A stretch of DNA of 64,000 nt from Vampirovibrionales bacterium (GCA_044346175.1 JBIIZQ010000005.1:20818-84817); one strand, 5' to 3'. Counted from the first letter of the stretch, positions 16,769 to 48,665 are shown. A program made the numbers and translations. Notes: generated by a model not told the origin, from the letters alone.

Positions 16769-18820
16769 CTAAGCCGTGACACGCTGAGGTGCTGAAGGGG
16801 TCATGCTCGGTAAATGGCTCGAAAAATGGGGTGGCTCTACCGTTAATACGCCCAGTTTTTCTCGTTGGCGACGTTTTTCTAACGAATTCGTCACCCAAAT
16901 ACCTAATTGTGGTTCAAGGAAAGCAAGTAAGGCGACAGAAATGGCAGCACTCGTTAGGGTGACACGATTTTGTGTATGTTTTACACGGGCGACTAAGTCG
17001 GGCAAGTGCTTGATTTGAGACTCACTTAACCGTAAGGCATGTTGCATCATGGGGCGTGTAATTTCTTGGGCATCTCGGCGTACACTGTAATCAGCCGTTT
17101 TAAACAGGAGTTGATGGCCTACTTGCTTGCTTTGCTCAAAAGTCATTAAGCCATCCCGTACCAAGGTGTGCATAAGCTGTTTGTTTGCAAGACGGCTCAA
17201 ACCCTGGCGTAGCCACTGGGTTCCCCAAGTGAGGGTAGGGAATCCTAATATATTGTCACGCAGTAACGTTTCTCTAAAGTCGGCATCGTTTCTACTTTCC
17301 ATGAGACGAATGCCACATAAAGCCCCATACGTGAACTCCATTTGACGTAAGGTTGTAAAAGGAAAAGTACGCTCAAAGGACAGAAACTCTTTCATGCCCT
17401 TGGCAAAATCTAAACCCAAACGTCCCGCTTTCTGAGTCACAAAGTGTCGACCCGCTACAGCACCCAAAAAGCCGAAAAAGCCTGCACTTACAAGAGCAGG
17501 TGTCAAGTTGCCTTGTTTCAAACTTTCACGGATGTAGGGAAACCATTTCACGTGAGTTTTAGGGGTTGGCGTATTAGATGCTTGGACTGGTGCTTCTTTG
17601 CTTGCTTGGGGTGTCTGTCCAAAACGAGTTTGAAAGGTAGGCACTTGAGAAGAAGCGTAAGAGGCGTTGGTCTTTTGTGTTGACACTGCAAAAGGTTGGG
17701 TTGCACCCATAAAGGGGGTTGCCACGACCATGGCGGGTACTTTACTCAGCAGTCCAGAGGACGTATTGGAGATGGGGTGAGTACTAGCGGGGGTTGGATG
17801 ACTTAGGGGGGTATTTTTACCAAGGGATTTTGCTAATTTATCGTAGTGTTCCGAGATGGCACGGGTAGCAGGGTTGGTATCAGCCTGTGGCCCATAGCGT
17901 TTTACCATCATTTGACGTATCCAGTGAGGAATCATCAAAGAAATGCTAAAAGCAGCCAATGTACCAAGCCCCTGCCAAGGCTGATGTTTGAGTGTGGTTT
18001 CCGCCATATGTGCCAGTTTACTATCCCACGCATGCCCCTCATGGCGTGCCATGCGGGTAAGGTCATGCAAAATATTGGGTAGCGTGGTTTCAACAGGGTG
18101 TCCCGTGTGTGGGTGTTTTAAATGAATATCCAAACTAGGGAGGCGTAAAGCAGCCGCAAGGTTTTGTGCTTCATGCGTGTAGGGGTCTTGAGTTTTGCCT
18201 AAAAGGCTATCAAAGGCATGCCGAAAATGTCCGCCTGTTTGTTGTGCAGTGGTGGTTTCCCACTTGACCAGTTTATCCACAGCTTTTTGCAATGATGTTT
18301 GACCTAAAAGCCTTTCCTGTGAGGTCTCTTGGGTGATGGTGGAGGCTTGCGGGGACTGCACAAGCTTTTGTAATGTATTGAAAAAATCTTGTTGATGACG
18401 ACTTTTCTCGGCAATGGTTCTATACACCTCAAGACTATCAGCATCAATATTGTGTTGTATTAAGCCACCATGACGTTTGTCCAGATGTTTTCCTACAACG
18501 TAAGTTGCAAGTAGACCAGGTAAAAAGGTATCAGTAAAATCTGCCGCTGTATCTCGGATGAACATTTCCTCGCCAGCTTGTTTGTTTTTCTCACCCGTGA
18601 TGTCAAAGGTACGGTATTGTTGCTGTACAAACCTTGGTACGGTGTAACCAAAGGTCTGTTCCACAGCGTAACGTACGCCTTCTCCTCGGTTATATAAGCT
18701 ATCGGCAACCCCGTTCATCAGTTGCGTTGCAACAGAAGCACCCCCTGAAAAGCGTGCTGTTTGGGGTACACGATGCTTTGTTGGCGTAGGCAATGACAAG
18801 GCAGAAGAGGAAACGAGCAT
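16769..18820 (-). CDS. Large hypothetical protein (683 aa)
   Basis: A long ORF with a central S/T/P/Q-rich low-complexity region. No recognised motifs. Confidence 0.4.
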   Translation of the reverse strand: MLVSSSALSLPTPTKHRVPQTARFSGGASVATQLMNGVADSLYNRGEGVRYAVEQTFGYTVPRFVQQQYRTFDITGEKNKQAGEEMFIRDTAADFTDTFLPGLLATYVVGKHLDKRHGGLIQHNIDADSLEVYRTIAEKSRHQQDFFNTLQKLVQSPQASTITQETSQERLLGQTSLQKAVDKLVKWETTTAQQTGGHFRHAFDSLLGKTQDPYTHEAQNLAAALRLPSLDIHLKHPHTGHPVETTLPNILHDLTRMARHEGHAWDSKLAHMAETTLKHQPWQGLGTLAAFSISLMIPHWIRQMMVKRYGPQADTNPATRAISEHYDKLAKSLGKNTPLSHPTPASTHPISNTSSGLLSKVPAMVVATPFMGATQPFAVSTQKTNASYASSQVPTFQTRFGQTPQASKEAPVQASNTPTPKTHVKWFPYIRESLKQGNLTPALVSAGFFGFLGAVAGRHFVTQKAGRLGLDFAKGMKEFLSFERTFPFTTLRQMEFTYGALCGIRLMESRNDADFRETLLRDNILGFPTLTWGTQWLRQGLSRLANKQLMHTLVRDGLMTFEQSKQVGHQLLFKTADYSVRRDAQEITRPMMQHALRLSESQIKHLPDLVARVKHTQNRVTLTSAAISVALLAFLEPQLGIWVTNSLEKRRQREKLGVLTVEPPHFSSHLPSMTPSAPQRVTA

Positions 18821-19974: not shown

Positions 19975-21171
19975 ATGATGATGCGTCTCTCTTCTTTAGC
20001 TTCACCTATGGCGTTTAGTGCCACAAACCGCTTAAGTCGTTCTCAGCAAACACCTAACACGCAAGTACAAAGCCGATTTGGCGATGCAGGATGCCCTGTC
20101 TGTATTTCTCGTGCTGCACTGAGTGATACGGTCGAAAAGCTTGTTAAAGGCGATGTTGTGATGCCCTCATCCGTCATGGCGAATGTATTGAAAAACGTAG
20201 ACCCCAGCATCCAACGTCCTGAGCAAGTACAGGCACGTATTCCGCACTTTAAAGCAACACGCTTAGCCCCCATTCGTTCAAGTGATGTACCTGCACTGAT
20301 GCTTACCACCTTAGGGCTTCCTGACCCTTTGAAAAAGGATGTCATTAGAGGCATGAAGCACTATGAAAATGTCACTCAGTATCCTGATGTCCCTGTACAG
20401 GCTGTCGCAGTGCCTCAAGATGAAGCGGTTGCTGCCTTTACAAATCGTAAAGCAGGTACCGATGATGCACACCAGGCTCAAATGTTGGCAAAATGGCTTA
20501 ACCCTGACACTCAAAAAGCCAATACCCACCGGTTTTTTGTAGACCTTGTGCCTGTGCCTTTAAAGCAAACGCTTGAAGCCAAGCAACATGCCGATTTGCC
20601 TCAAACGCTTACCGTGGTTCATCATACCGTGAGTGGTGAGGGTCGTATCAATGGCGAGGTTAAAAAGATTCCCGGTGGTTTGACGACCCTTGGTGTACTT
20701 TCCATGAAAAAAACAGGTCATGACCACAGCCAGTTGTACATATTCCATAACAAAGAACTCCCTGGTATGGAAGGGTTTGGACAGCCTGCCGCAGGGTTGA
20801 TGAATGTGATTGCCATGGTTGCAAACCGTGAAGAAGGCTTCAAACAGGTACAATCTTTATCGGTTCGTGTGCCTAAAGACCAACCTGACCTTAAACACTA
20901 CATCCACAAACTTGCACAAAAAGTAGATACGCCTTTAAAAAAAGAAGTGAAGGATGGCGGAGAAGTCCTAACATTTGAGCATGTTTCAGGGTTTAAAGGA
21001 CACATGGACAAGCTTGAAGAAGCCTACAATGAAATCTATAAGCACCATCAAAAAGACCTTGGTACGAATACGCTTGCGCCTGCTACCTTCCAGTTTTTAC
21101 ATGCCATTCGTCCCTCTCAGTTTCTTTCTAAGGATGCTGCAAATGCCAATGCTTTTGCATTAAAGCCTTAA
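19975..21171 (+). CDS. Hypothetical protein (398 aa)
   Basis: A long ORF following a 1.15-kb AT-rich non-coding gap. No recognised motifs. Confidence 0.4.
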   Translation: MMMRLSSLASPMAFSATNRLSRSQQTPNTQVQSRFGDAGCPVCISRAALSDTVEKLVKGDVVMPSSVMANVLKNVDPSIQRPEQVQARIPHFKATRLAPIRSSDVPALMLTTLGLPDPLKKDVIRGMKHYENVTQYPDVPVQAVAVPQDEAVAAFTNRKAGTDDAHQAQMLAKWLNPDTQKANTHRFFVDLVPVPLKQTLEAKQHADLPQTLTVVHHTVSGEGRINGEVKKIPGGLTTLGVLSMKKTGHDHSQLYIFHNKELPGMEGFGQPAAGLMNVIAMVANREEGFKQVQSLSVRVPKDQPDLKHYIHKLAQKVDTPLKKEVKDGGEVLTFEHVSGFKGHMDKLEEAYNEIYKHHQKDLGTNTLAPATFQFLHAIRPSQFLSKDAANANAFALKP

Positions 21172-21252
21172 GGTAACGCTTGGGGTTTCGTCACGAGTAT
21201 TTCAAAATCGTGGCGAAACCTCAAGCCCTCTGTATGTCCCCTGTTTTCATTT

Positions 21253-22803
21253 GTGCCATTGATTCTCTGTCTGCCTGTCTGTGGGAAAGCTTTTATGACA
21301 CTTGCTGTCACCTCTCATATGCCCTCCTATGCCACAGTACAAGCCCCACGAGGTGCATTTCCTCAGCGGGTTGATAATCTTAATAGCACACCCCTTGCCC
21401 TTGATAGTTTCTTTTCACGTACCGACTCTGCCCTTTACGCCTACCCTAAACAAAATAATCCTATCGCTCCTCACTCTGATGTATTTACCTCTGTCACGTC
21501 AATAACAAGCGATGTAACCAAAGTGCCTGTTTGGTCGCAGACACTTTACGGAAGTGGTGGTATCAATGCAGCAGGACGTACTATGTCTGAAGCCTCTCGG
21601 AGAGATGCCACACGTCATAATCCCTTCAGGCTAGAGTCCCATCCACCACAAAAGCCTTCACCGTCTTCTTCTCCAGATACCCTAGAAGAACAAAAAAATT
21701 ACGTACCCGTTACCGCACTTCAAGTTTCGGCACCCCTCTTGGAACTGCGTACTCAAAGTGAGCATGCCACCTCCAAGCGAGAGAATACAAAAACGCTTTT
21801 CCATTTTGATTTACCTGTGAGTGGCATTCTGGTTGCTTACCTAACACGTTATTATCATTTGAATCATCATCCAACACTCAACACGTGTCGCCAAGTGGGT
21901 CAATTGCTTGCAAAAGGACAGAAGCTCCAAAAACTTGTCCCGAAAACATTACAAGAAGCGGATGCATCTCTCAGTTCTCCCATACGCTACGACCTCCTTG
22001 CTTCTCCTGAAGCACTCTATGATAAAAACAAAAGTATCAGGCGTACACTCCTTCACCAAGCAGATACCTTATTCAAGGACCGTCCTGCACTGCTCCAAGC
22101 GTATAAAGAACTCATTGCTAGCCATGCAAACCAAATTGCAGCTTCGAGTAAAGAGGAACAACAAAGACAAGCACGCAAGGGGATTCATCAGTTACCTGGT
22201 AAACTTTTAACGCATGAGCTTCCCCAAACGTGGGAACCCAATAAAAGCCTTAAGCTAGCCTATACGCAAGCGGCTGAAAGTTTAGAACATAACCGAAAAG
22301 CAACTTGGCAAACACTCCATGAAGCCTTAGAAAAAACCCTTCAAGTACAAGCGGAACATACTCACTATGCAAAGGCATGGCATGCTTTAAATAAAGAGCG
22401 GCAAGGGATGCTTAACCTCATGGAGAGCGATGCTCCCCAAGCACAGGGCTTTAAACTAGGGTTCAGTCCAAAGCTTTACCCTTTTAAGCAGTATGCTAAA
22501 GAGCTTGGTTTATCACCTGATACTTACAGTAAACAAGCTGCTTGGCGACCGATGGTAGCCCTTCATCAGTTTTTAGCAGATAGCCATAAGAGTATGGCGC
22601 AAAAGCTGCATCAAGCAGGGCAAATTCAACACTTGGGTACTCGTTGGGCAGGCTTTGCCGAGACGTTTCGTCTTTCACAGAAGCGTGCCGTTCAGTTTGC
22701 GAATGTGGAGTCTTGGATTATGGGCGTTGCTACAGTGGGCATGATTACCCTAGAAAGACGGGTTCATCAGGCGAGTGAACGTCGTGACCAAGCACAAGCC
22801 TAA
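21253..22803 (+). CDS. Hypothetical protein (516 aa)
   Basis: A long ORF with no recognised motifs, co-directional with 19975..21171. Confidence 0.4.
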   Translation: MPLILCLPVCGKAFMTLAVTSHMPSYATVQAPRGAFPQRVDNLNSTPLALDSFFSRTDSALYAYPKQNNPIAPHSDVFTSVTSITSDVTKVPVWSQTLYGSGGINAAGRTMSEASRRDATRHNPFRLESHPPQKPSPSSSPDTLEEQKNYVPVTALQVSAPLLELRTQSEHATSKRENTKTLFHFDLPVSGILVAYLTRYYHLNHHPTLNTCRQVGQLLAKGQKLQKLVPKTLQEADASLSSPIRYDLLASPEALYDKNKSIRRTLLHQADTLFKDRPALLQAYKELIASHANQIAASSKEEQQRQARKGIHQLPGKLLTHELPQTWEPNKSLKLAYTQAAESLEHNRKATWQTLHEALEKTLQVQAEHTHYAKAWHALNKERQGMLNLMESDAPQAQGFKLGFSPKLYPFKQYAKELGLSPDTYSKQAAWRPMVALHQFLADSHKSMAQKLHQAGQIQHLGTRWAGFAETFRLSQKRAVQFANVESWIMGVATVGMITLERRVHQASERRDQAQA

Positions 22804-24374
22804 AAAGCCATGACAGGTGCCATAATGGCATCCTTCATGCCATGGATGATTTTTTTGTCCTTCGGGCATCCCGTTGCTAACACACCCGCTAGGGTTGTTT
22901 TTTCTTCAACAGGATGGACAATATAATAGGGGCAGAGTCTTACTCGTGCTTCAAATGGATAAGCTTGTAGTGTGTCTGTATTCAGGGCATGCCAAGGTAC
23001 AACCTGCGTGTTGTGATAAGGCTGTAAAATATGAGGGGTTTGGTGAAAATCATCCAGAGCCTTCTGAAGGGCTTCAGCCCAACCCTGACTTGCGTGGTCA
23101 TGACCTATCACAACGCCTCTTGAACCCCAAGCTTGAGGCGAAAATCCAGAGGGTTTTATTACCCATTGCCGTGCTTTTTGACTTGCCGTTTTAAGCAAGT
23201 GCCAAGAGGCTAAGGGTTTACCCTGATAGACGAGTGTAGGCGTATACGCTGCAGAGGGTGGTAAAGGCGTGGGGTCAAGCACCCAAGTGGGTGGGATGAT
23301 AGCATCTAAAAGCGTGATAGCACAAGACGATTGTAGTAAGGGGTACTTGGTACGCATTTTTTGCCAAGAAAGCTCCCAAAAAGGCCGTAGTGCTGGATGA
23401 TGCCACAAAGCCGCCATCATTTTTTCCTCTAGGTGAGGTTTAATAGGTGGGCTACACACCAGCCATTGCTTTTTAATCGCATGAACGATTAACTCGGCGT
23501 TAGGTAACGAGGTGACATCAAAGCATTCAAAAAAACGATACAGGACATCTACACGGTGTACTTTGCCCTGAAAATCAAAATATAGCCCATCAGCAAGGGG
23601 AAAGAGGTCTTTAGGGTGCAGGGCTATTACGCCTGATTGCTCAAACCCGCCTAGGGCTTGCGTAATGAAGTACTCCCATTCTGGTGCATAATCCTTCGCT
23701 TCATCAGAAATGCACACCACAATATGAGGAAAAGGCTGTCCAAACGTTGTAATAGCTTGGCGACGTTTTTCGGAAAGCCCTGTTTGAACCAAAGCTCGAA
23801 AAGCCTGAAGCCATGTGGTGGCTAAATCCTTAGAGGCCGGTGGTAGATAGGGGTTACCATCCATGTCATGGTAATAGGACTGAAGTGCCTGCGTAAAACC
23901 CAACCCGCCAGGAATGGCATCCACTTCACAAAGGGTTAAGGTGTCCCCCTCACCCCAAAGTAAATCAGGACGAATGACCAAGGGGATGTGGCTTTTTTGT
24001 CGTTTGTGGCGTGCAAGGTCAATCACCATTTGTGGTTTTCCTTGGTCAAGCCACTGAGAAACCCAAAGTGGTACCTGCTCAGGGTGGGTTTGTTTCCAGC
24101 TTTGTTCGTAAAGGGTATCCAATGCGGTCAGCCACCAATGTAGTGCGTCTCCTATGGCTGCTAGCTTTGAAGTAATGGCTTCAGGGAGTGGTAAAGGATA
24201 GGCTGCTAACTTCCAAGAGGGTGTATGGGCTACGACCTCTTGGAAGTTAGCCTGCCCCTGATACAACCCCTCCCAAGTAGGGAGTGCTGTCGGTAAGGGG
24301 ACGGGTCGTATGATTGGCTCATCACTAAGCGTATGACTCAAAGCGGTGCTGTAAGAAGCAGAGGAAAGTGTCAT
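22800..24374 (-). CDS. Hypothetical protein (524 aa), possibly an ATP-grasp-like or circularly permuted ligase fold (speculative)
   Basis: A long ORF. The C-terminal half has weak resemblance to ATP-grasp-like families. No firm motif. Confidence 0.35.
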   Translation of the reverse strand: MTLSSASYSTALSHTLSDEPIIRPVPLPTALPTWEGLYQGQANFQEVVAHTPSWKLAAYPLPLPEAITSKLAAIGDALHWWLTALDTLYEQSWKQTHPEQVPLWVSQWLDQGKPQMVIDLARHKRQKSHIPLVIRPDLLWGEGDTLTLCEVDAIPGGLGFTQALQSYYHDMDGNPYLPPASKDLATTWLQAFRALVQTGLSEKRRQAITTFGQPFPHIVVCISDEAKDYAPEWEYFITQALGGFEQSGVIALHPKDLFPLADGLYFDFQGKVHRVDVLYRFFECFDVTSLPNAELIVHAIKKQWLVCSPPIKPHLEEKMMAALWHHPALRPFWELSWQKMRTKYPLLQSSCAITLLDAIIPPTWVLDPTPLPPSAAYTPTLVYQGKPLASWHLLKTASQKARQWVIKPSGFSPQAWGSRGVVIGHDHASQGWAEALQKALDDFHQTPHILQPYHNTQVVPWHALNTDTLQAYPFEARVRLCPYYIVHPVEEKTTLAGVLATGCPKDKKIIHGMKDAIMAPVMAF

Positions 24375-25763: not shown

Positions 25764-27854
25764 TCACTCAATACTACCTACGGCATTGACCTGAATATCT
25801 GGAATTAACTCCGAGTAAGACAGCACGGAAATCATGGGTAAGTGGCGGTCAAGGAGCTGATAGAGAGGAAGTCGAATGCGAGGGGAACACAGAATGACAG
25901 GAACACGGTCATACTGCTGTTGCACGGCTTGAAGCGTTTGGGCAGTGACTTCAACCAGTTGTTGGACTTGTGCTGGATTAAGTAAAAACATGGTACCTAG
26001 TTCAGTACGCTGACAGGAATCATCCAGTGTGCGTTCCCAATCGTTGGAGAGTGTAATGGCGGTAATACTCTTGTTTTGGTCTGCTTGCATGACACAAATT
26101 TGTCGTCCCAAAGCCGAGCGGATGCGTTCGGAGAGGACATCAGGTTCTTTGCTGAAACGTGCATAGTCGCTCAGACGCTCAAAGATAAACTGCACATCCT
26201 TGATAGAGACCCGCTCACGGATAAGATTGACAAAGATTTTACGTAAATCGTTGGGTGTAAGCATTTGAGGTACAAGCTCTTGGACGAGAGAAGCGTCATG
26301 CTGGCGTACAAGCTCCATCAGCTTGAGTACATCCATTTTGGTCATGACTTCATCGACGTACTTAATGGTGATTTCCTGCAAGTGGGTAATCACAACATCG
26401 GTGGCTTCCACAGCGTGGGCTTGAATTTCAGGCGGAATCTGTTCAGGTTCCAGCCAAAAAGCAGGGGCATTAAATGAGGGGTCAATGTCTTGAACCACGT
26501 CTGCTGGAGGCTCCTGTCCCGTAGACTGGTAAATAGGTGCCAGAATCATATAACGCCCAGGATACACATTCCCAGAACCTACAGGGTTTCCTCGAATTGA
26601 AATAAGATATTCAAACTGTCCTATGGACATACTATCCAAAATACGCACATTGGGCAGAATAAAACCAAGTTCATCCGTAAGGCGGTTACGTAGCCCCGCA
26701 ATTTTACCTAAAAGTTGGCCATTCTGTTCGGGGTCAGCGATTTGGAGCAAGTTCATACCCACTTGAACACTCACAGGGTCAACACCAAGCTTTTGATACA
26801 TACGGTTGGGGTCAACCATTTGGTTCATTTCTTCTTTTACGCCCTCCAGTTGTGCCATTTGTTCGGTCATGTCTTTATTCAGAAACACACTAACCCCAAG
26901 CACAATAAGCCCTATTGCCAAAGGGAGGAAAACATACCAAGGTAATCCTGTAATGGGTGCACTGAGTGCAATAAGAAGCATGAACAAGCCTGAGAAAATC
27001 AAGCTAAAGGGTTTTAATTGAAGGGTTTGTAAAAGGTCTTTTGCCAAACTATCTGTTTGGGCGGTGGAACGTGTCATGGTAATACCAGCGGACACCGACA
27101 TCATTAAGGCAGATACTTGTTGGGTTAAACCATCCCCGATGGTCAAAATGGAGTATTTATTGATAGCCTCTTCAAAGGGCATTTGCTTAATGGCAATCCC
27201 AATGGCTAATCCTCCAATTAAGTTAATCAGGGTAATAAGAATCCCAGCAATGGCATCCCCTTTTACGAACTTCATGGCACCATCCATGGCACCATAAAGG
27301 GCGGATTCTCGTTGTAATTCTTCACGACGACGCTGGGCTTCATCAGGACTGATGAGACCTGCGTTAAAGTCGCCGTCAATCACCATCTGTTTTCCAGGCA
27401 TAGCGTCCAATGCAAAACGAGCCCCGACTTCTGCCACACGCTCTGACCCTTTTGTGATGACCATGAAGTTAACAATAATGATGATGATGAAAATAATCAT
27501 CCCCACCAATAAATCGCCCCCTGTGACAAACTTCCCGAAGGCGATAATCATTTCTCCTGCTTCCCCGTGGGCAAGAATGGCTCGGGTGGTTGCAATCCCA
27601 AGGGCAAGACGAATCATTGTACCCACCAAAATGACAGAAGGGAAAGTCGCCATTTCAACTGGGTTTTTGACGAAAAGCGACATCATCAATAAGAGAATCC
27701 CAAGGGCGATGTTGATACAAATAACCACGTCAATCAGCCACTCGGGTAACGGCATGAGGATGATAAGAATCAAGCCCAAAATACCGAAAACCAGTGCAAA
27801 TTCACTGGGTTGCGGGAGGGTAAACCCCATGGGATTATCAGAAGCCATCATCAT
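25764..27854 (-). CDS. flhA: Flagellar/T3SS export apparatus protein FlhA (SctV family)
   Basis: Full-length alignment to FlhA, including FGKFVTGGDLLVGMIIFIIIIIVNFMVITKGSERVAEVGARFALDAMPGKQMVIDGDFNAGLI and GAMDGAMKFVKGDAIAG. Confidence 0.85.
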   Translation of the reverse strand: MMMASDNPMGFTLPQPSEFALVFGILGLILIILMPLPEWLIDVVICINIALGILLLMMSLFVKNPVEMATFPSVILVGTMIRLALGIATTRAILAHGEAGEMIIAFGKFVTGGDLLVGMIIFIIIIIVNFMVITKGSERVAEVGARFALDAMPGKQMVIDGDFNAGLISPDEAQRRREELQRESALYGAMDGAMKFVKGDAIAGILITLINLIGGLAIGIAIKQMPFEEAINKYSILTIGDGLTQQVSALMMSVSAGITMTRSTAQTDSLAKDLLQTLQLKPFSLIFSGLFMLLIALSAPITGLPWYVFLPLAIGLIVLGVSVFLNKDMTEQMAQLEGVKEEMNQMVDPNRMYQKLGVDPVSVQVGMNLLQIADPEQNGQLLGKIAGLRNRLTDELGFILPNVRILDSMSIGQFEYLISIRGNPVGSGNVYPGRYMILAPIYQSTGQEPPADVVQDIDPSFNAPAFWLEPEQIPPEIQAHAVEATDVVITHLQEITIKYVDEVMTKMDVLKLMELVRQHDASLVQELVPQMLTPNDLRKIFVNLIRERVSIKDVQFIFERLSDYARFSKEPDVLSERIRSALGRQICVMQADQNKSITAITLSNDWERTLDDSCQRTELGTMFLLNPAQVQQLVEVTAQTLQAVQQQYDRVPVILCSPRIRLPLYQLLDRHLPMISVLSYSELIPDIQVNAVGSIE

Positions 27855-27949
27855 GTTTCAGTAGTTTCTAGGACATAAGTCTCAAAAAGTATCAAGGGTA
27901 TGTAAAAAGATAAACGTTCGTCTCAACCTAATGAATGCTCACGCTCACT

Positions 27950-28930
27950 TTAGGAGGGGTTATCAGAAGCTTGGATAGGTGCACCAACCACCGTCTGATT
28001 TAAGCCCAACAAACTCTTTAGCGATTCTAACTGAGTACTAAACCTAGCATCAAGCATACCATTTTTTGTTTCTATCATACAGCTACCCAATTCAACATTA
28101 AGGTTTTCCTCTACGCTAATTTTACCTTCTAAACGAAATGGATTCGGGTGTTCCGCAAGCCATTGCTCAACCACGACGATATTTTCAGGATGGACATGCA
28201 CAATAAGCTGCTTGGCGTTACGGTCACTTTGACGAAGGCTGTCTTTTAACAAATGTAAAACAAGCTCCGGGTCGCAGGTTGCTTCAGTTTTAATAATTTT
28301 TTCTACTAACTGGTAAACCAATGGTAAGAGTTCGTCTTTGACGGACTCAAAAGCTTTTTCTTTGGCAGACAAAATACTCTCAATACCATCATGTAGGGTC
28401 AAAAGCTGCTCCTCTAAGCGTCGTTCGGCTTCTTCATACCCTTGTTTAAGCCCCGCTTCGTAACCATCTTGATACCCTTGTTGACTCGCTTCCTGATAAG
28501 CGGACTCTCTAAGCACTTGCAGGTCTTCTTGAAGTGTATCGGCAAGAGGCAAAGCACGAGGCGATTGAGGACTATCTTCTGCTAAACCGTACTCGGTATG
28601 CACTGCGACTGTATGGTTTGAAAGTGTCTCATGAGTTTCATGAGGCAAACTATCGGCACTAAAAATGTCAGAAATAGGGGGTGTTTGAAAGGAGGCTGTT
28701 TCCTCTATGATAGATGCCGCATGAGGATACTCAGCTGTAGGATGAAACCCTTGGGTAGGCATTGACGCAGAGGGCATGGGATACTGTGCATAGAGTGGTT
28801 GGGTGCCTAAGGTTTCTTCTTCATCGAGGTAAGAGGGTGCTTGTAAAGCAGCATCTATAACCCCTCCCCCTAGAGGAGGCGTGCTACTGTGCATGAGCTG
28901 GGCAAGTTGTTCTTTTGTTAATTTAGCCAT
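27950..28930 (-). CDS. FliH/SctL-like export ATPase regulator (putative)
   Basis: The central E/Q-rich segment QQGYQDGYEAGLKQGYEEAERRLEEQ has the Gx3G-type repeats typical of FliH/YscL/ATP-synthase b-like proteins. It lies immediately upstream of flhA. Confidence 0.45.
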   Translation of the reverse strand: MAKLTKEQLAQLMHSSTPPLGGGVIDAALQAPSYLDEEETLGTQPLYAQYPMPSASMPTQGFHPTAEYPHAASIIEETASFQTPPISDIFSADSLPHETHETLSNHTVAVHTEYGLAEDSPQSPRALPLADTLQEDLQVLRESAYQEASQQGYQDGYEAGLKQGYEEAERRLEEQLLTLHDGIESILSAKEKAFESVKDELLPLVYQLVEKIIKTEATCDPELVLHLLKDSLRQSDRNAKQLIVHVHPENIVVVEQWLAEHPNPFRLEGKISVEENLNVELGSCMIETKNGMLDARFSTQLESLKSLLGLNQTVVGAPIQASDNPS

Positions 28931-29075
28931 GGGTATCTATGCACCAAGTTTAACACCATACATGTATGAGAAGCCTACTTTTTACTGTACCACAATGAAG
29001 CTCCTTCAAATGCCCTATATTGAAACCACCTCCACTGAATAGAGGACTAACCCTCAAGAACGCTAGCTCAAACAC

Positions 29076-29110
29076 AAAAGAGGTCTTTCCTTAAGGGAAA
29101 GACCTCTTTT
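29076..29110. terminator. Bidirectional rho-independent terminator (13-nt stem with T/A runs on both sides)
   Basis: aaaaGAGGTCTTTCCttaaGGGAAAGACCTCtttt lies just 3' of the minus-strand bc operon (29166) and 5' of the FliH/FlhA operon. Confidence 0.7.
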
Positions 29111-29165
29111 AACACGTAAAAGGAAATGACAGAACCAGTAACACGATTCAGCCTAGCATACCTCG

Positions 29166-30533
29166 TTAAACTTGAGGTGGTGCCATGGTGGTATTGGCTG
29201 ACTGTGCTGTTTCTGGGTGCTTAATACTGTAAAGGTATTTAGATAGGGCTTCAAGCTCACTCTTTTTACCAATCACAGGAGGCATAATCGTGGTGTAAGG
29301 ATTTTGCTTGGGGTCAAGGTTTTGCATGGTTTGCAGTAAAGCCAGAATGGCTTTTTCATCGCGCTCACCCAAGAGTTGCTTCATACTACGATACCCATCC
29401 ACTGTATGACAGCTTGCACACTGATTACGGAACATATTCTGCCCTAACTCAGCGGGGTTTTGTGTTGCCCATTTGAAAGAGGCAACATACCCTTTTTCAA
29501 TGAGTTTAGGTACTTCCGACTTTAATACACCGTTGGAATACATATAGTTGTAAACCACATAAGGTTTACGCAACATTTCTCGAGACCACTCTGTGGTACT
29601 TGTAACCAGCAACCCACATACCAAAAAGAGGAAGGAAGCCACTGTGGTAAAGCCTCGTGCGTTGAGATAAGGGCCCACAAGTACAAATCCCATAACCGTT
29701 GCTGCCGCAACGACAGCCATATAGATAGCACGGGTTAAAACTGAGAAGTTTCCAGCCGCAGCCGTTTGAAAACCGTGTGTTGCGTTTTGAAGCACATCAG
29801 GAGGAAGGCTCAAGAAGTACCAAGCTAACCCGATAGGCGCCGTGATGGCGGCAGGGATAAACCACTTGGACGCATAACGCATCATTTTCGCACGGAATTC
29901 GGGGTCTTTGAGCTGAGACGTTGTTAAGAAAGCGTACATACCCGCCATGGCAAAGGTCATACCCACACGAATGACGATAGCAGGTCCATACCCTTCATTA
30001 AGCCAACCATCAAACCAGTAGTGTGAAGTGGCCCACTTACCAGGGGTTAACATGAAAGTTAAAATCCCGTTAATGGTAAAGAGTGTGAGGTAGGAAATAA
30101 TCGCATACCAAATGGCAACCGTTACGTGTTGCTTGCGAGGCATGTGGTTCCAAGTGTAGTGATACACCGCAAAGGTCGCAATTTCGGTTAAGAAGAACAA
30201 GTACTCAATCGCCCAAGCGAGGGAGAAGTTCTGAATCAGCGTTGCAGTACCATTGGGGCTTGCTAAACTGATAGACCACCAAATGCCCACCCCTGTTACA
30301 GCACCAAAAACGGTGGTAACAAGTAAGAAGAACAAGGAGTGCTTCTTAAGGAAGTCGTACATTTTTTCATCGTTGTTTTTGTAAGCGAGCCACTCTGTTA
30401 AAGCAAAGAAGGCACCGCCACCCACTGCAAAGTGTGAGACAAACACGTGAAGAATAGAAATAATCCCAATAATCCATGTACCGCCCAACGTCGGCACGTC
30501 CCATAAAGGATAGTTCACGATAAGTACCCCCAA
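29166..30533 (-). CDS. Polytopic membrane protein with a C-terminal monoheme cytochrome c domain (bc-complex-associated)
   Basis: About 10-12 TM helices, then a soluble C-terminal domain with the CASCH heme-binding motif. The N-terminal region is paralogous to ORF 32230..33348. Confidence 0.6.
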   Translation of the reverse strand: MGVLIVNYPLWDVPTLGGTWIIGIISILHVFVSHFAVGGGAFFALTEWLAYKNNDEKMYDFLKKHSLFFLLVTTVFGAVTGVGIWWSISLASPNGTATLIQNFSLAWAIEYLFFLTEIATFAVYHYTWNHMPRKQHVTVAIWYAIISYLTLFTINGILTFMLTPGKWATSHYWFDGWLNEGYGPAIVIRVGMTFAMAGMYAFLTTSQLKDPEFRAKMMRYASKWFIPAAITAPIGLAWYFLSLPPDVLQNATHGFQTAAAGNFSVLTRAIYMAVVAAATVMGFVLVGPYLNARGFTTVASFLFLVCGLLVTSTTEWSREMLRKPYVVYNYMYSNGVLKSEVPKLIEKGYVASFKWATQNPAELGQNMFRNQCASCHTVDGYRSMKQLLGERDEKAILALLQTMQNLDPKQNPYTTIMPPVIGKKSELEALSKYLYSIKHPETAQSANTTMAPPQV

Positions 30534-31606
30534 ATTGTGAATACAATCATACCAACCAACACAGCGACACCATAGGCAGTCATGATGGCAGAACGGGTTT
30601 TACATTGACCATTATCAATGAAGGGTGCAAGACCAAGTCCACCAGCAATCGCACCAAAAAACATCATGCCCACTTGTTCCCCTTCAATGAATCCAATCAT
30701 AGGAGGTAACAACTTTAGGAACTGGAACATCGACAAGAAGTACCACTCGGGCTTAATCCCTTTAGGGGCAGCTGCAAAGGGGTCTGCTTCAGGTCCTAAT
30801 CCCCAAGGGCTTAAGCACACAATCGCAACAACAAAGTTCACTACAACAAGCCACACCATTAAATCCTTGAGCATAAAGTCAGGGAAAAACTTCTCTTCTT
30901 TTTGTTCGGCAGGAGGCAGTGCAACATAAGATTCTGGTTTGGAAATCCCGTGAAGTTGTACCATTAAAAGGTGAAGTCCCATTAACCCCATCAATGCCAA
31001 GGGAAGCAAAATGACGTGAATCACAAAGAAGCGTGAAATCGTAGCTTGTCCCACTTCAGCCCCGCCACGGAGCATACTACCCATAATTTCACCTACGAGA
31101 GGACTCTTTGAAGTGATATCAAGACCAATCTTTGAGGCAAAGAAGGCGACTTCGTCCCAAGGGAGCAAGTACCCCGTAAATCCAAAACCCATCAGTAACA
31201 CCAACATGATAAGCCCTGAAAACCAAGTGAACTCACGAGGGCTACGATAGGCTTTCATGAAGTAAGCACTAAACATGTGGATGAACGCAAAAAGAATGGC
31301 AAGGTTTGCTCCCCAACTGTGCATGGAACGTACCAACCATCCAAAATCAACTTTGGTGTTAATTGCATTGACAGAAGCATGAGCCGACTCTATCTCAGGG
31401 ATGTAATGCACCATCAATAAGCCACCAGAAACAAACTGAATGATGATTAACACCATCAAAATACCACCCATGTAGTACCACACGGAGTGTTTATGGACAG
31501 GGACTGTTTTTTTACCTGCAAGCTTCATAAATTCTGCAATGGGTAAACGGGCATTGACCCAGTTAAATGCTGCCATTTTTAAGGCATCAGTATCAAGTGC
31601 CATCAT
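30515..31606 (-). CDS. Cytochrome b6-type cytochrome b fused to subunit IV (PetB/PetD- or QcrB-like)
   Basis: VDFGWLVRSMHSWGANLAILFAFIHMFSAYF and PREFTWFSGLIMLVLLMGFGFTGYLLPWDEVAFFASKI align with b6/PetB. The C-terminal PEWYFL is the subunit IV/PetD motif. Confidence 0.85.
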   Translation of the reverse strand: MMALDTDALKMAAFNWVNARLPIAEFMKLAGKKTVPVHKHSVWYYMGGILMVLIIIQFVSGGLLMVHYIPEIESAHASVNAINTKVDFGWLVRSMHSWGANLAILFAFIHMFSAYFMKAYRSPREFTWFSGLIMLVLLMGFGFTGYLLPWDEVAFFASKIGLDITSKSPLVGEIMGSMLRGGAEVGQATISRFFVIHVILLPLALMGLMGLHLLMVQLHGISKPESYVALPPAEQKEEKFFPDFMLKDLMVWLVVVNFVVAIVCLSPWGLGPEADPFAAAPKGIKPEWYFLSMFQFLKLLPPMIGFIEGEQVGMMFFGAIAGGLGLAPFIDNGQCKTRSAIMTAYGVAVLVGMIVFTIWGYLS

Positions 31607-31611
31607 AGGGG

Positions 31612-32142
31612 TTACGCCTCCTTGCCTGCACGAGGTAACTTAGATACAACAACATCCCCATTGACCACCTCTGCTTTGAAAGCAACCAGGGGTTGAGGTG
31701 GAGGACCTGAAATATTTTTGCCTGAATTGGGGTCATATTTACCACCGTGACAAGCACAGAAAATGACACCCTCAGGTTTATCGTATTGAACCGTACATCC
31801 TAAGTGGGAGCATATGGCACTAAAGGCATGGAACGTACCAGCATCATCACGGATAATGACACCAGGTTTTTTACCAAACTGGAAGTTCTTTCCTGTGCCT
31901 TTAGGAATGGTATCGACTTTACCAAGGTTAACGCTTGTGACCTCAGGGCCAGCTTCTTCTTCACGAGGTAATAAATACTTGATGATAGGGAAAGCCGCAG
32001 CACCACCCCAAACAACAGCGACCCCAGCAAGAGCGACGGTTGTAAGAAACTGACGACGTGCCTTTTCGGCAACCCCAGGGCACATTTCACAGGAGGTTGT
32101 TGTGTTGACCTCAGGTGCTTCGGGCGTTACATGAGAAACCAT
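31612..32142 (-). CDS. Rieske [2Fe-2S] iron-sulfur protein
   Basis: Box I CSHLGC and box II CACHGGKYD, plus an N-terminal TM anchor. Confidence 0.85.
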   Translation of the reverse strand: MVSHVTPEAPEVNTTTSCEMCPGVAEKARRQFLTTVALAGVAVVWGGAAAFPIIKYLLPREEEAGPEVTSVNLGKVDTIPKGTGKNFQFGKKPGVIIRDDAGTFHAFSAICSHLGCTVQYDKPEGVIFCACHGGKYDPNSGKNISGPPPQPLVAFKAEVVNGDVVVSKLPRAGKEA

Positions 32143-32229
32143 AAAAAGAAAACCTCAAATTGTTTCACTTAAAACAGAACATTCAAAAAGTAAAAAAGAG
32201 GAATGAACCACGATACTACTTGGACTCAT

Positions 32230-33348
32230 TTAAACGGGGTTTGAAGGCTTATCGAATGACTTGATGGTAATTTTGCCAAGCCATACAAGATACACAATGG
32301 TGCCTACTGCCAGTACCCCAAAGGCAATCAGTAAATCCCACTGAGGGTTTACTGCAGCCTTTTCAGGTGAAAAGAACGAGGACACTGTGTAATCACGTAA
32401 CAAATGGCGCATCCATGTCATGCTAAAGACCACACCCAAGGCTGTGAACAACCCAGTACGGAACCATGCGAATGACTGACGAGACCAAGCCAAAGCCATT
32501 GAAATAACAGACACTACACCCAACACGTTGGAGAAGTTAAAGAGATGTGTTCCCATTTTATCGCCACCCAAAAAGTTTTGGCGAATTGGTTCAGGAAGGG
32601 CAAATAAGAACCAAAACCCAACCACGATTTGTAAAAGGGTTACGCCCAAGTACCAAGCAGAACCTTGACGAATCAACCAGCCTGCATACTCAGCTTGACG
32701 CTTCTCCCAGTAAAGCCCCATGGTGCCAATGCCAAGACCCGTCACGGCAAATGCGGCTAAGGCAAAGTGCAGGTAACGAGACCACAGCGTAGGCTCTAAC
32801 AAGTTTAAGGCTAACCCTGTTTTACCTTCTACAATAAAGTCTTGCCAAGTGTCAGGCTTTAACATAAGGGTCATGTTATTGGTGAAGAAGAAGCCAATAA
32901 CTGCAAAAATAGCAAACACACCCATCAACACATAAGGCACCCAAGCACCCAAGGCTTTTTCTTTAAACTTCGCAATATAGGTAGCGTAGTAAGCCACCAG
33001 TAGCATGGGGATGATGGCAATCCAAGGGACACCCATCAAAATAGAAGAGGTGTAGTACAAAGGACCATACACCAATTGCAAAAAGAGCAGGGGAACAATC
33101 CCTTGAGTAATCGCCAAAGAAATCGCAAAGGGTAATGAAAATACCATGCTATGTCCTAAACGACTGGCATGAGCATTCTCTTGGTGTTTCCCAGCAAGCA
33201 GGTATAAGGCGGATACTAAAGCACCACCAAGTGCAAGGTTCATAGGTACCACGTGGGTAAAAAATCCTACAACCAGTAAGGTTTTTAACAGACCCACAGG
33301 GGCTGGAAATGGAATAGGTTGCAGGTCAGGAAGAATCATGTTTGGCAC
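32230..33348 (-). CDS. Polytopic membrane protein, paralog of the N-terminal part of 29166..30533 (bc-complex-associated)
   Basis: The shared block FTHVVPMNLALGGALVSALYL corresponds to ILHVFVSHFAVGGGAFFALTEW in ORF 29166..30533. About 10 TM helices. It is the first gene of the apparent operon. Confidence 0.5.
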   Translation of the reverse strand: MPNMILPDLQPIPFPAPVGLLKTLLVVGFFTHVVPMNLALGGALVSALYLLAGKHQENAHASRLGHSMVFSLPFAISLAITQGIVPLLFLQLVYGPLYYTSSILMGVPWIAIIPMLLVAYYATYIAKFKEKALGAWVPYVLMGVFAIFAVIGFFFTNNMTLMLKPDTWQDFIVEGKTGLALNLLEPTLWSRYLHFALAAFAVTGLGIGTMGLYWEKRQAEYAGWLIRQGSAWYLGVTLLQIVVGFWFLFALPEPIRQNFLGGDKMGTHLFNFSNVLGVVSVISMALAWSRQSFAWFRTGLFTALGVVFSMTWMRHLLRDYTVSSFFSPEKAAVNPQWDLLIAFGVLAVGTIVYLVWLGKITIKSFDKPSNPV

Positions 33349-33852
33349 GATGGCACACTCCTCTTTACGAAAGCAGACATCAAACAGGCGGATATCACAA
33401 AAACTTGGTTACTCTGTGAATGGGCGTTTCAGATAAGGTCGTTAAAACAACCTCTCATTAAAGAGACACTTCTATCAATAGACTACCCTGCAATAAGTGA
33501 GGCATCAGTAAAAAAGTAAGCCCCAAAGAGTTTAAGATAAGTTATGCTAGAAGGCACATATAAAAGTAAGATAAAGCATTTACCTTACCATTCACCACGT
33601 TTATATTTCACCACATTTGTGCCAAAACAACAACCACCCCAAAGACGATTTGATGTGAAGGCTTTATAAAGACACAGGATGCGAGAGGCTGTATTGGGCT
33701 GAAAATAACCAAAAAAAAACAGCGTTTGTGGAAAAAACAACGCTGCAACCAGGGGGAATATAAAATTGTAAAAGCGTGACCCAAAAGGTCGTATCAAAAG
33801 TGTTTGAGAGTAGAGGGAGGTTTTATTTTGAATCAAAGAATGATGGTGGCTT

Positions 33853-34500
33853 CTATTGCCATAAACCGCTTGAAATGGGGTTGCCAACAGAGCCTGTCCA
33901 AGGTTGCCCAAGGAATGCTGGTGGTAAACCACGTGTTGGGTTATCGGGTCCGTAATTTAAAGGTAAGCCTAAGCCTGCCGCATAGCCTAGCAAAGCGGGG
34001 AGGTCACGGGAAGCCGCAGCGGGTGCAAAATAAAATTTAGGGTCAATTCCCCTTTGAGGAAAGCTACTTGAGAGGGTTCCAGGTTTACCAAAATCGGCAT
34101 AACTATAGCCCGCTGGGTTGGAGGTGGGTCCAAAGCCTGTATTGAGCATATAGGGGGAAGTGCTTTGTTGCCAAGCGGGTTGTTGATAGGCGGCTATTTG
34201 CTGATTCAGGCTATTACGGTCAAGTTGTAGGCCAGGAATGGCATTCTGAAAATTACCAGGGGGTGAAAAACCAGGTAATCTTGAAGATAAGGTACTGTTT
34301 TGATTTCCATTAGGCGACCCTACGAGAAAGCTTTGAGGACTTGTCCAAGTAGGACTTGCGGAGGGCTGTTGGGCTTGTCCACCAAGTTGGACACTACCAC
34401 CAGAGATATTTACAAGTGATTGACCATTCTGAGTGATATTGACCCCTTGAGGCGTAATATCAATATGGATGGGGCCTGCGACGGAAATACTTGTCATCAT
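33853..34500 (-). CDS. Low-complexity G/P/Q/N/S-rich protein (probable secreted or surface protein)
   Basis: The ORF track gives 33853..34701. The likely real start is the internal MMTSISVAGP at 34498-34500, which is preceded by an AT-rich promoter region. There are no catalytic motifs. Confidence 0.4.
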   Translation of the reverse strand: MMTSISVAGPIHIDITPQGVNITQNGQSLVNISGGSVQLGGQAQQPSASPTWTSPQSFLVGSPNGNQNSTLSSRLPGFSPPGNFQNAIPGLQLDRNSLNQQIAAYQQPAWQQSTSPYMLNTGFGPTSNPAGYSYADFGKPGTLSSSFPQRGIDPKFYFAPAAASRDLPALLGYAAGLGLPLNYGPDNPTRGLPPAFLGQPWTGSVGNPISSGLWQ

Positions 34501-48600: not shown

Positions 48601-48665
48601 TGGATGAAATCTCACAGTACTTGCATCAAAGTAACACCTTACTTGAAGCCGCTCAACGAGGTTAA
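45645..48665 (+). CDS. Processive family-2 glycosyltransferase (cellulose-synthase/BcsA-like) fused to tandem C-terminal PilZ domains
   Basis: GT2 motifs are LCDDKARP (DD), FDADHVP (DxD), ITEDFHT (TED), and KQRLRWARG (QxxRW), with multiple TM helices flanking the catalytic domain. At least two PilZ units are present: (RIDRRIR...NISENG) and (RRRSPRFR...DVSESG). A third degenerate one may also be present. Confidence 0.75.
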   Translation: MMNSTNFSSQGDFSQDTPTQEAGGGQSTSFSKKEVRRTPLVPPIAWLCMGVVLIGVVFFAFQSNPTLHAFLSGVTGESSTSVGSVAENYFGQLSRPLIPESSLYLPLGVQAIISLGIIVAMLTIGWAKPQARRMIMLLTVFSVTRQLIWRAVDTMDFQTQSPVVLAVGYGIFVAEVLSFIHLIFGYFQLWSPTHREAPKINTSDPSRLPFVDVFVPSYNEPVSVVYRTLVGCIGMDYPNKTVYLCDDKARPEMAQLAEKLGVRYLSRVDNVHAKAGNLNNALRHSRGEYCVIFDADHVPCKKFINEIIGYFQDPEIGFVQTPQHFFTLDPFQRNLLAEQIANNEQDLFYHVIQPGNDHWGAAFFAGSGAMFRRQALNDVGGFATETITEDFHTSIRVQALGWKSAYHPKDLAAGLAQDSYADFVKQRLRWARGMTQVLFYDNPLFKRGLNLAQRMCYFTSILYFFNAIHRVVFLTAPLFFLVFGLMTINAGFLEVVVYYLPSFVCLFFGYSVLTYGFRHTFWSEVYESATCIDLLCATVGTILSPKGKIFNVTPKGGTNAQTVFHWQSVWVQIFLTVVSVFGIFMGVFRALTTPSYVGGIFTNLFWTVYNITLLVGAFFVAQERPQLRLNPRIDRRIRCDLRLLDGSIAVGYTTNISENGLAMEFEEPVPVSGTMALKVLDWETNEISFLSVQAVRSVMDEQGKHYVGFRVVNRTEEQHRKLIYHMFGSAEAWHHDQTALTPLSAYKSFIESPMRLSTIEQMTFRRRSPRFRASLQVRLFSGTQDYSATTIDVSESGLLLMMYHPKENLLQSRVDIQIQWSNGSVGTLQGIVKRVDPMLGTPGAFKLALNFVDLSREQRQALISQLFGPRPGVVRVAPPSHLMIGCKVQNAQGQTVAGVTQEVSEMGIRLLLNQSLPVEMHEEVSIMLHWEQTPHVKAGGYPPQEMEQVPQSKVYKTIVVGYQHPSAGNPRAELLLYFKDINLQSLDEISQYLHQSNTLLEAAQRG

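Follow-up and report, generated by a model that had tools for sequence, protein, structure and literature searches.

What becomes of the electrons from a Rieske/cytochrome b module that has no cytochrome c1, cytochrome f or QcrC-type (dihaem) gene beside it is the question raised by a four-gene operon in a 64,000-nucleotide stretch of DNA from a Vampirovibrionales bacterium (GCA_044346175.1 JBIIZQ010000005.1:20818-84817), hereafter the window. The four open reading frames (ORFs) follow one another in the same orientation, 33348..29166 on the minus strand, and encode in this order a polytopic membrane protein (B), a Rieske protein, a fused cytochrome b and a second polytopic protein that ends in a cytochrome c domain (A). 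A sequence-only reading saw here a variant bc-type complex with additional integral subunits. An integrated, supercomplex-type assembly is also our best reading, but A and B are better explained as a terminal reductase module related to cytochrome bd. We consider it probable that the operon encodes a composite quinol:O2 machine, in which Rieske/cytochrome b and a bd-like module of the OR-C type form an obligate combination of complexes III and IV. That the four proteins form one electron-transfer unit is held with more confidence than that O2 is its acceptor.

The A subunit (29166..30518, minus strand) joins a CydA-like protein to a monohaem cytochrome c. It matches Pfam PF01654 (Cyt_bd_oxida_I) over residues 22-165, with 33.4 bits against a gathering score of 26.2, and PF00034 (cytochrome c) over residues 361-437. 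Residues 26-167 align to Geobacillus CydA (5doq_A; phmmer, E 1e-7) and residues 23-152 to residues 13-142 of Escherichia coli CydA (hhalign), which pairs H29 with H19, E110 with E99, E117 with E107, H136 with H126 and T150 with S140. Across 83 sequences from many phyla the first four of these residues are each 99-100% conserved and position 150 is a threonine in 68 and a serine in 15; six residues separate E110 and E117, as in non-qOR1 enzymes. A further motif, E319-x-x-R322-K323-P324, is 99-100% conserved in the same sequences and aligns with E445-x-x-R448-Q449-P450 in the haem b595 ligand region of the E. coli protein; by this alignment A would retain an E445-like glutamate at E319. The cytochrome c domain (residues ~338-455, 29169..29522, minus strand) carries its CASCH motif at 29420..29406 and an axial Met417 in an MPP motif, and C372, C375 and H376 are conserved in all 83 sequences, M417 in 99%.

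The quinol side of a bd oxidase is missing from A. No conserved histidine or methionine in transmembrane (TM) helices 5-7 could replace the haem b558 ligands (H186, M393), positions 188-193 being aliphatic or cysteine, and the AlphaFold2 model has no Q-loop, only a short connection between TM6 and TM7. With neither site, A is not a member of the quinol-oxidising bd enzymes (qOR). In the model, 8 TM helices precede a cytochrome c domain that is itself helical. The loops rich in lysine and arginine, taken from the sequence and the helix limits of the model, are the odd-numbered ones, and together with eight helices they place both termini outside and the haem c domain in the periplasm, alongside the Rieske head. 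Judged by its residues, then, A keeps the catalytic and proton-channel positions of a bd oxidase and has lost the quinol/haem b558 site. Elsewhere in the family some homologs have two CxxCH motifs and several from Acidobacteriota and Kryptonia are 520-680 amino acids (aa) long, as noted at three loci, with 50%-identity representatives reaching ~930 aa; the haem number of the cytochrome c extension varies, as reported for Desulfovibrionia OR-C1a.

B (32230..33348, minus strand, GTG start, 372 aa) has no Pfam or NCBIfam match, and its database relatives are all named 'hypothetical protein', the closest being from Vampirovibrionales at 87% identity. Its AlphaFold2 model has 9 TM helices and the fold of CydA and CydB, two four-helix bundles plus a further helix. 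Aligned as profiles (hhalign, 38 B against 37 A sequences), B and A are paralogs, with a probability of 95.9% and E 6.4e-9 over 284 columns; the alignment pairs the H-V-x5-A-x-G-G and T-[LF]-M-L-x-P-x-x-W motifs of the two proteins and His32 of B with His29 of A. A direct BLASTP comparison gives only E 0.002 over 116 residues, and profile comparison was needed to establish the relationship. The sequence-only reading had already called the two proteins paralogs with shared motifs, correctly except that the first motif has five variable positions where it counted four. Its estimate of 10-12 TM helices is too high for both models, and its view that the pair lies outside common families applies to B alone, A scoring above the PF01654 gathering score. 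Set against single E. coli CydA and CydB sequences, the B family yields nothing (hhalign probability 0.1-0.3); its link to the bd superfamily runs through the fold search and the A family, with no direct family match. His32 is kept in 75 of 76 sequences, the remaining one having a gap, and invariant Q, Y, W and R residues are also present. Counterparts of the channel glutamates E99 and E107 are absent from B.

These features correspond to a class that has been defined by comparison of genomes. Murali, Gennis and Hemp (bioRxiv 10.1101/2021.01.16.426971) recognise three divisions of the bd superfamily, qOR, OR-C and OR-N, and describe OR-C enzymes as having no quinol site, an 8-TM CydA with one or more haem c sites on a C-terminal periplasmic extension, and a paralogous 'b' subunit that lacks the channel glutamates. 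Their reference row for OR-C1a lists H24, E105, E112, H131 and S145, with F at the H186 position, and the residue spacing of A (81, 7, 19, 14) is identical to it, the numbers being shifted by five. OR-C is on record in 41 phyla, among them p__Cyanobacteria, Armatimonadota, Acidobacteriota, Planctomycetota and Verrucomicrobiota. A and B are best read as an OR-C-type pair, an assignment based on the defining features, the signature spacing and the presence of OR-C in the same phyla.

The two inner genes supply the quinol-oxidising half. The Rieske [2Fe-2S] protein (31612..32142, minus strand, 176 aa) has a twin-arginine translocation signal (RRQFL, TIGR01409), one TM anchor and a PF00355 domain (E 6e-16), and the residues of its cluster motifs, CSHLGC and CACHGG, are 93-100% conserved among 70 cassette homologs. 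Its top match in the PDB, 8hn2_A (E 1e-22), is a chain of 110 residues entered there as 'cytochrome b6-f complex iron-sulfur subunit', which we take to be the soluble domain of a green-sulfur-bacterial Rieske protein; cyanobacterial b6f Rieske proteins follow. Cytochrome b (30515..31606, minus strand, 363 aa) fuses a b6-like N-terminal half to a subunit IV-like C-terminal half and matches PF00033 (E 6e-47), PF13631 and PF00032. The haem ligands H96, H110, H197 and H212 are 100% conserved, the PEWY motif of the quinol-oxidation (Qo) site (P286, E287, W288, Y289; residues 286-289) is 99-100% conserved, and the best PDB match of the N-terminal half is cyanobacterial cytochrome b6 (1vf5_A, E 1.7e-51). 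The protein has YMGG where b6 carries the CxGG cysteine of haem cn, and both proteins score below the NCBIfam equivalog cutoffs, with 228.8 against 325 for b6 and 69 against 250 for PetC. The operon contains no gene for cytochrome c1, cytochrome f or a QcrC-type subunit, and its one c-type haem is fused to a polytopic protein, as first described. Within the window the CxxCH of A is the only one in a real gene; the other occurrence lies in a 68-codon stop-to-stop stretch (2336-2542) that we take as non-coding. On these matches, the two proteins are a b6-type Rieske/cytochrome b module, yet not a b6f complex. The Rieske protein has a glycine at the serine position of CxCHG[SG]xY. Glycine at this position goes with lower-potential clusters, and because of it the quinone substrate is probably menaquinol.

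The junctions between the four genes are tight. B and the Rieske gene are separated by 87 nucleotides (nt), in which no promoter or terminator match was found, and the Rieske and cytochrome b genes by 5 nt. The longest ORF of A, 455 aa from a TTG at 30533, is the length originally assigned to it; its probable product is a 450-aa protein, the most likely start being the GTG at 30518 because of the family consensus MNYP, a 100% identical 450-aa database entry and the sequence tcGTGAac. This GTG overlaps the stop codon of cytochrome b by 4 nt (GTGA). An intrinsic terminator follows the operon (29069..29111, minus strand), with a 16-bp stem, a 5-nt loop and a U-rich tail; the stem (29111..29075) folds with a dG of -23.2 kcal/mol (z -5.68), and 0 of 200 shuffled sequences are equally stable. 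Upstream, a weaker hairpin followed by U9 (~33746..33711, -11.3 kcal/mol, z -2.1) probably ends the preceding gene. Both hairpins were established by folding, having been missed by the sigma-70/terminator scanner, and an Rfam scan of 28800-34000 returned nothing at E<=1. The non-coding region 33349..33720 (minus strand) is presumed to hold the promoter and 5' untranslated region of the operon; the ~370-nt leader has no match to the sigma-70 consensus. Because they share a strand, have tight or overlapping junctions and are bounded on both sides by terminator-like hairpins, the four genes look like one self-contained transcription unit. The gene order, the Rieske protein, the fused cytochrome b with its PEWY motif, the C-terminal CASCH and the strong terminator had all been recognised in the sequence-only reading, and ORF calling, Pfam, NCBIfam and folding bear them out.

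The arrangement recurs far beyond the window. Clustered at 50% identity, the A family makes up 1039 clusters at E<=1e-3 among 1.8 billion representatives, and when one genome from each GTDB species was scanned by pattern, at least 595 genomes proved to have an A relative. This genome scan was run with a 16-sequence alignment of A, a 43-sequence diverse alignment having proved too divergent. At the best 80 species-level loci from these at least 595 genomes, ORFs were called and searched with hidden Markov models of the A and B families and, using phmmer, with the Rieske protein and cytochrome b of the window. The order B-Rieske-cytochrome b-A is found at 62 of the 80 loci and is blurred by an overlapping ORF call at 1 more. 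Two loci, both titled 'uncultured Bacteroidota', have the order Rieske-cytochrome b-A-B, 7 have A-B only, with no Rieske or cytochrome b gene within 7 kb, 1 has A alone, and the remaining 7 are cut by a contig end. What was first taken for an unusual gene order is thus the common one among these loci.

According to their record titles, the hosts of the full cassette include Melainabacteria (Vampirovibrionales, Obscuribacterales, Caenarcaniphilales), Armatimonadota, Acidobacteriota, Verrucomicrobiota, Planctomycetota, Chloroherpetonaceae (Bacteroidota), Lindowbacteria, Fibrobacterota, Hydrogenedentota and Omnitrophota, and the B-Rieske-cytochrome b-A order spans at least 10 named phyla or candidate phyla. 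Aerobic or microaerophilic groups, such as Vampirovibrionales, Obscuribacter, Acidobacteriota and Chthonomonas, account for many of the hosts. The Kryptonia and Methylomirabilota loci have A-B only. The cassette is also present in single metagenome-assembled genomes (MAGs) with the labels Actinomycetota, Proteobacteria, Gammaproteobacteria and 'archaeon'; the proteobacterial, Coleofasciculaceae and 'uncultured archaeon' titles are probably taxonomic mislabels, and the Actinomycetota label may be one too. Loci titled 'Proteobacteria bacterium', 'Gammaproteobacteria bacterium' or 'Coleofasciculaceae cyanobacterium' have proteins 51-53% identical to those of the window and the melainabacterial 'HHH' form of the cassette, explained below. 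The complete genome of Ca. Fervidibacter sacchari PD1 (NZ_CP130454.1) has an A homolog at 6980-9349 with no Rieske, cytochrome b or detectable B gene within 7 kb; a 340-aa ORF directly downstream has no similarity to the B family (hhalign probability 0.08), and the partner there may be a different protein.

When each of the four proteins is compared pair by pair between loci, their identities rise and fall together (r 0.78-0.94), also with Melainabacteria left out, and the genes that flank the cassette differ between Obscuribacter and Vampirovibrionales. By these comparisons the cassette is inherited as a unit and has probably also been transferred as one. Its B subunits fall into two types, 'HHH' (His at 32, 194 and 315) in Melainabacteria and in 5 of the 7 stand-alone A-B pairs, and 'HFD' in the cassettes of other phyla. 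The window B shares 34% identity with the B proteins of stand-alone pairs vs 25% with those of other-phyla cassettes, whereas the window A is equidistant from the two (41-42%), a contrast that points either to a cassette that arose twice or to highly unequal rates. Position 194 of B opens TM5, where CydA carries the b558 ligand H186, and position 315 aligns with E319 of A; an extra haem site formed by H194 and H315 is possible in 'HHH' B subunits.

The sequences show how the genes are arranged, which folds and relatives their products have, which residues are conserved, the topology of A and the linkage across phyla; from these we infer the association of the four proteins, the electron path, the haem content, O2 as acceptor and the energetics of the unit. 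Quinol, probably menaquinol, would be oxidised at the Qo site of Rieske/cytochrome b in a Q-cycle, its two electrons going separate ways, one through the pair of b haems and one to the Rieske cluster. The head domain of the Rieske protein would then reduce the His/Met-ligated haem c that directly follows TM8 of A, so that this haem would serve as both cytochrome c1 and haem b558. From there the electron would reach one or more haems on H29 and probably E319 in the bundle formed by TM1-4 and TM8 of A, where O2 would be reduced, most likely to water, with protons drawn from the cytoplasm via E117 and E110. B would stand in for CydB and may carry a further haem on the invariant His32. A Q-cycle contributes 1 charge per electron and the scalar chemistry of a bd-type enzyme another 1; the composite unit would therefore yield ~2 charges per electron, vs 1 for a quinol bd oxidase. 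We put forward only tentatively the complete version of this proposal, an obligate Rieske/cytochrome b-bd supercomplex in which the haem c of A replaces both c1 and b558, B has its own His-ligated haem, and quinol is oxidised by O2 with high affinity and about twice the charge yield.

The same wiring could end in an acceptor other than O2, such as H2O2, nitric oxide (NO) or another small oxidant, in detoxification or anaerobic respiration. The haem set would be unlike that of a true bd oxidase, lacking b558 ligands and perhaps having an extra haem on His32 of B; relatives occur in Desulfobacterota and other anaerobes (Murali et al., bioRxiv 10.1101/2021.01.16.426971), and canonical bd oxidases also act on peroxide and NO, as cited in a 2024 paper. 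Against such an acceptor, the proton-channel glutamates on the cytoplasmic side and the H19- and E445-type ligands, which bd oxidases use for O2 reduction, are invariant here, and the hosts named above come in good part from aerobic or microaerophilic groups. We regard a non-O2 acceptor as unlikely.

A second alternative keeps the complex of the bc type. A would be a large anchor for a c1-like haem, B a structural accessory, and electrons would leave to a soluble carrier or another oxidase. A Rieske/cytochrome b module does need a c-type acceptor, the haem c of A is the only one in the operon, and a missing b558 site and a B protein without sequence-level family match would also suit a subunit that had no catalytic task. 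An anchor would, however, hardly explain why the residues equivalent to H19, E99, E107 and H126 and the E-x-x-R-[KQ]-P motif are invariant across phyla at ~40% overall identity. It also fits poorly with A-B pairs that occur without Rieske and cytochrome b: the seven loci that carry A-B alone indicate that the pair is a catalytic unit in its own right and not an accessory of a bc complex. This alternative, too, we hold to be improbable.

Least probable is that a bc-type complex and a bd-type cytochrome c oxidase are merely co-transcribed and exchange electrons through a diffusible cytochrome c encoded elsewhere, for although A-B stands alone in some genomes and the order changes to Rieske-cytochrome b-A-B in Bacteroidota, the bc module would on this view be left with no c-type subunit, the Rieske and cytochrome b genes lie between B and A, the cytochrome b and A frames overlap, the four proteins co-vary, and the 64-kb window encodes no other CxxCH protein. 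The flanking proteins fall in a functionally related family, that of the bd oxidases, and their genes are tightly linked to those of the Rieske/cytochrome b module; the case that the sequence-only reading named as counting against an integrated complex, an unrelated family together with separate transcription, does not apply.

Several points weigh against a composite quinol:O2 machine all the same. No OR-C or OR-N member has been purified or biochemically characterised in the literature searched, which leaves O2 reduction unproven, and the 2024 paper states that experimental confirmation is still lacking for OR-N. With haem b558 absent, the haems proposed for A and B are putative in number and type. 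The sub-alignment that equates E319 with E445 is weak when taken alone (P 0.39), and Murali et al. (bioRxiv 10.1101/2021.01.16.426971) score both E445 and W441 as absent in OR-C1a. The 87-nt gap between B and the Rieske gene is wider in the window than in most other loci and may contain an internal promoter. Both the Rieske potential and the quinone type are deduced solely from the glycine in the cluster motif, by way of established knowledge of Rieske tuning.

The surroundings of the operon have no connection with respiration, and the functional unit therefore consists of the four genes only. FliH and FlhA lie downstream, unknown proteins and a solute-binding protein upstream, and the neighbourhood also encodes a DHH phosphoesterase, FtsH, AlaRS and a cellulose synthase-like protein. 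FlhA (696 aa, FHIPEP) and a 326-aa FliH-like protein whose long N-terminal half is of low complexity occupy 25764-28930 on the minus strand, directly past the operon terminator; no further flagellar genes stand beside them, and the pair fits a flagellated Vampirovibrionales host. The nearest relatives of the proteins of the window likewise come from Vampirovibrionales. A chlamydial type III secretion context for the two was ruled out, their homologs all being from Vampirovibrionales or Melainabacteria. At 45645-48665 on the plus strand lies the gene for a 1006-aa cellulose synthase-like family 2 glycosyltransferase with one or more PilZ domains (Pfam matches two stretches), a BcsA-type architecture that suggests exopolysaccharide synthesis controlled by cyclic di-GMP. 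Large ORFs of 660, 683, 398, 516 and 524 aa at 10486-12468 (plus strand), 16769-18820 (minus strand) and 19975-24374 have no Pfam match at E<=1e-5 or 1e-3.

To our knowledge, the one role in which cytochrome bd oxidases are understood is that of a quinol oxidase with a yield of 1 charge per electron, and the cytochrome c-dependent branches OR-C and OR-N are known from sequence only. A conserved operon that joins an OR-C pair to Rieske and cytochrome b gives the OR-C enzymes a concrete, testable architecture, which predicts the entry haem, the active-site residues and action as a quinol oxidase without a soluble cytochrome c. The cassette occurs widely among phyla of soil and fresh water (Acidobacteriota, Verrucomicrobiota, Planctomycetota, Armatimonadota, Melainabacteria), and its current annotation as 'cytochrome ubiquinol oxidase subunit I' and 'hypothetical protein' means that genome inventories of terminal oxidases and of complex III probably misread it. 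For Melainabacteria it adds a third combination of complexes III and IV to the debate on how the relatives of Cyanobacteria acquired respiration. Should an obligate Rieske/cytochrome b-bd supercomplex exist, it would rank as a fourth way in which complex III is joined to an oxidase, would occur in hundreds of species from at least 10 named phyla or candidate phyla, the non-photosynthetic sisters of Cyanobacteria among them, and would bear on the assembly of aerobic respiration in the cyanobacterial lineage.

Parts of this picture are already catalogued, namely the OR-C protein family, the coupling of bd-like genes to petA, petB and petD for OR-N1 and OR-N5, and the melainabacterial fusions of complex III with haem-copper complex IV. 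We found in the literature searched no description of an OR-C pair whose two genes enclose those for Rieske and cytochrome b, though it may be depicted in a journal figure of Murali et al. (PMC8630170) or in Soo et al. 2017 (Science), nor of the breadth of the cassette across phyla or of the 372-aa 'hypothetical protein' as a second bd-like subunit. In a supplementary note, Matheus Carnevali et al. mention in passing one melainabacterial MAG with a second cydA directly beside cytochrome b6 genes.

Among known systems, the b6f complex and the green-sulfur-bacterial Rieske/cytochrome b proteins are nearest to the two inner genes, the best PDB matches of the Rieske protein and of the N-terminal half of cytochrome b being chains deposited as b6f. 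As opposed to b6f, b6 and subunit IV are here fused, the CxGG cysteine, cytochrome f and PetG, PetL, PetM and PetN are all missing, and the scores lie far below the equivalog cutoffs. The canonical CydAB(X) oxidases (E. coli 6rko, Geobacillus 5ir6, Mycobacterium 7d5i and 9r2g) differ from A in having a Q-loop, the H186/M393 site for haem b558 and direct oxidation of quinol. A has 8 TM helices vs 9 in CydA, plus a fused cytochrome c, and the operon has no CydX-like small ORF; B is as similar to CydA as it is to CydB, and its histidine at the H19 position is invariant.

OR-C enzymes are the nearest known counterparts of the pair. Like them, A has 8 TM helices, no quinol or b558 site, a C-terminal periplasmic CxxCH domain and the residues equivalent to H19, E99, E107, H126 and S/T140, its partner is a glutamate-less paralogous 'b' subunit, and the same phyla are on record. 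In the preprint the genes for a and b lie side by side and cytochrome c is named as the donor, whereas here the two genes are split by Rieske and cytochrome b, in the window as at 62 of the 80 loci; they are adjacent at the 7 A-B loci and the 2 with the order Rieske-cytochrome b-A-B. B is predicted to have 9 TM helices vs 8, and an E445-like glutamate is apparently kept. The text and supplement of Murali et al. mention no link of OR-C to Rieske/cytochrome b, the figures of the journal version aside. They do describe such a link for OR-N1 and OR-N5a/b, whose bd-like genes typically sit with petA, petB and petD and for which quinol is inferred as the donor (bioRxiv 10.1101/2021.01.16.426971). 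These systems of Nitrospirota, Chloroflexota and Rubrobacter share with ours a CydA/CydA' pair without a quinol site beside Rieske and cytochrome b genes. Their subunits, in contrast, have 10-14 TM helices with no fused haem c noted, their cytochrome b is split into petB and petD where ours is fused, and OR-N5a keeps a histidine at the H186 position and has a residue spacing different from that of A.

The actinobacterial bcc-aa3 supercomplex (7q21, 6adq) and the fused complex III/IV operons of Melainabacteria, which have a C-type haem-copper oxidase (PMC6349859), follow the same principle, with Rieske/cytochrome b wired to an oxidase through a membrane-bound c-type haem and both halves encoded in a single operon or by adjacent genes. 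The oxidase is a haem-copper enzyme in those systems and a member of the bd superfamily here, and the bridging haem c, which they carry on a QcrC-type subunit, would here be part of the oxidase subunit itself.

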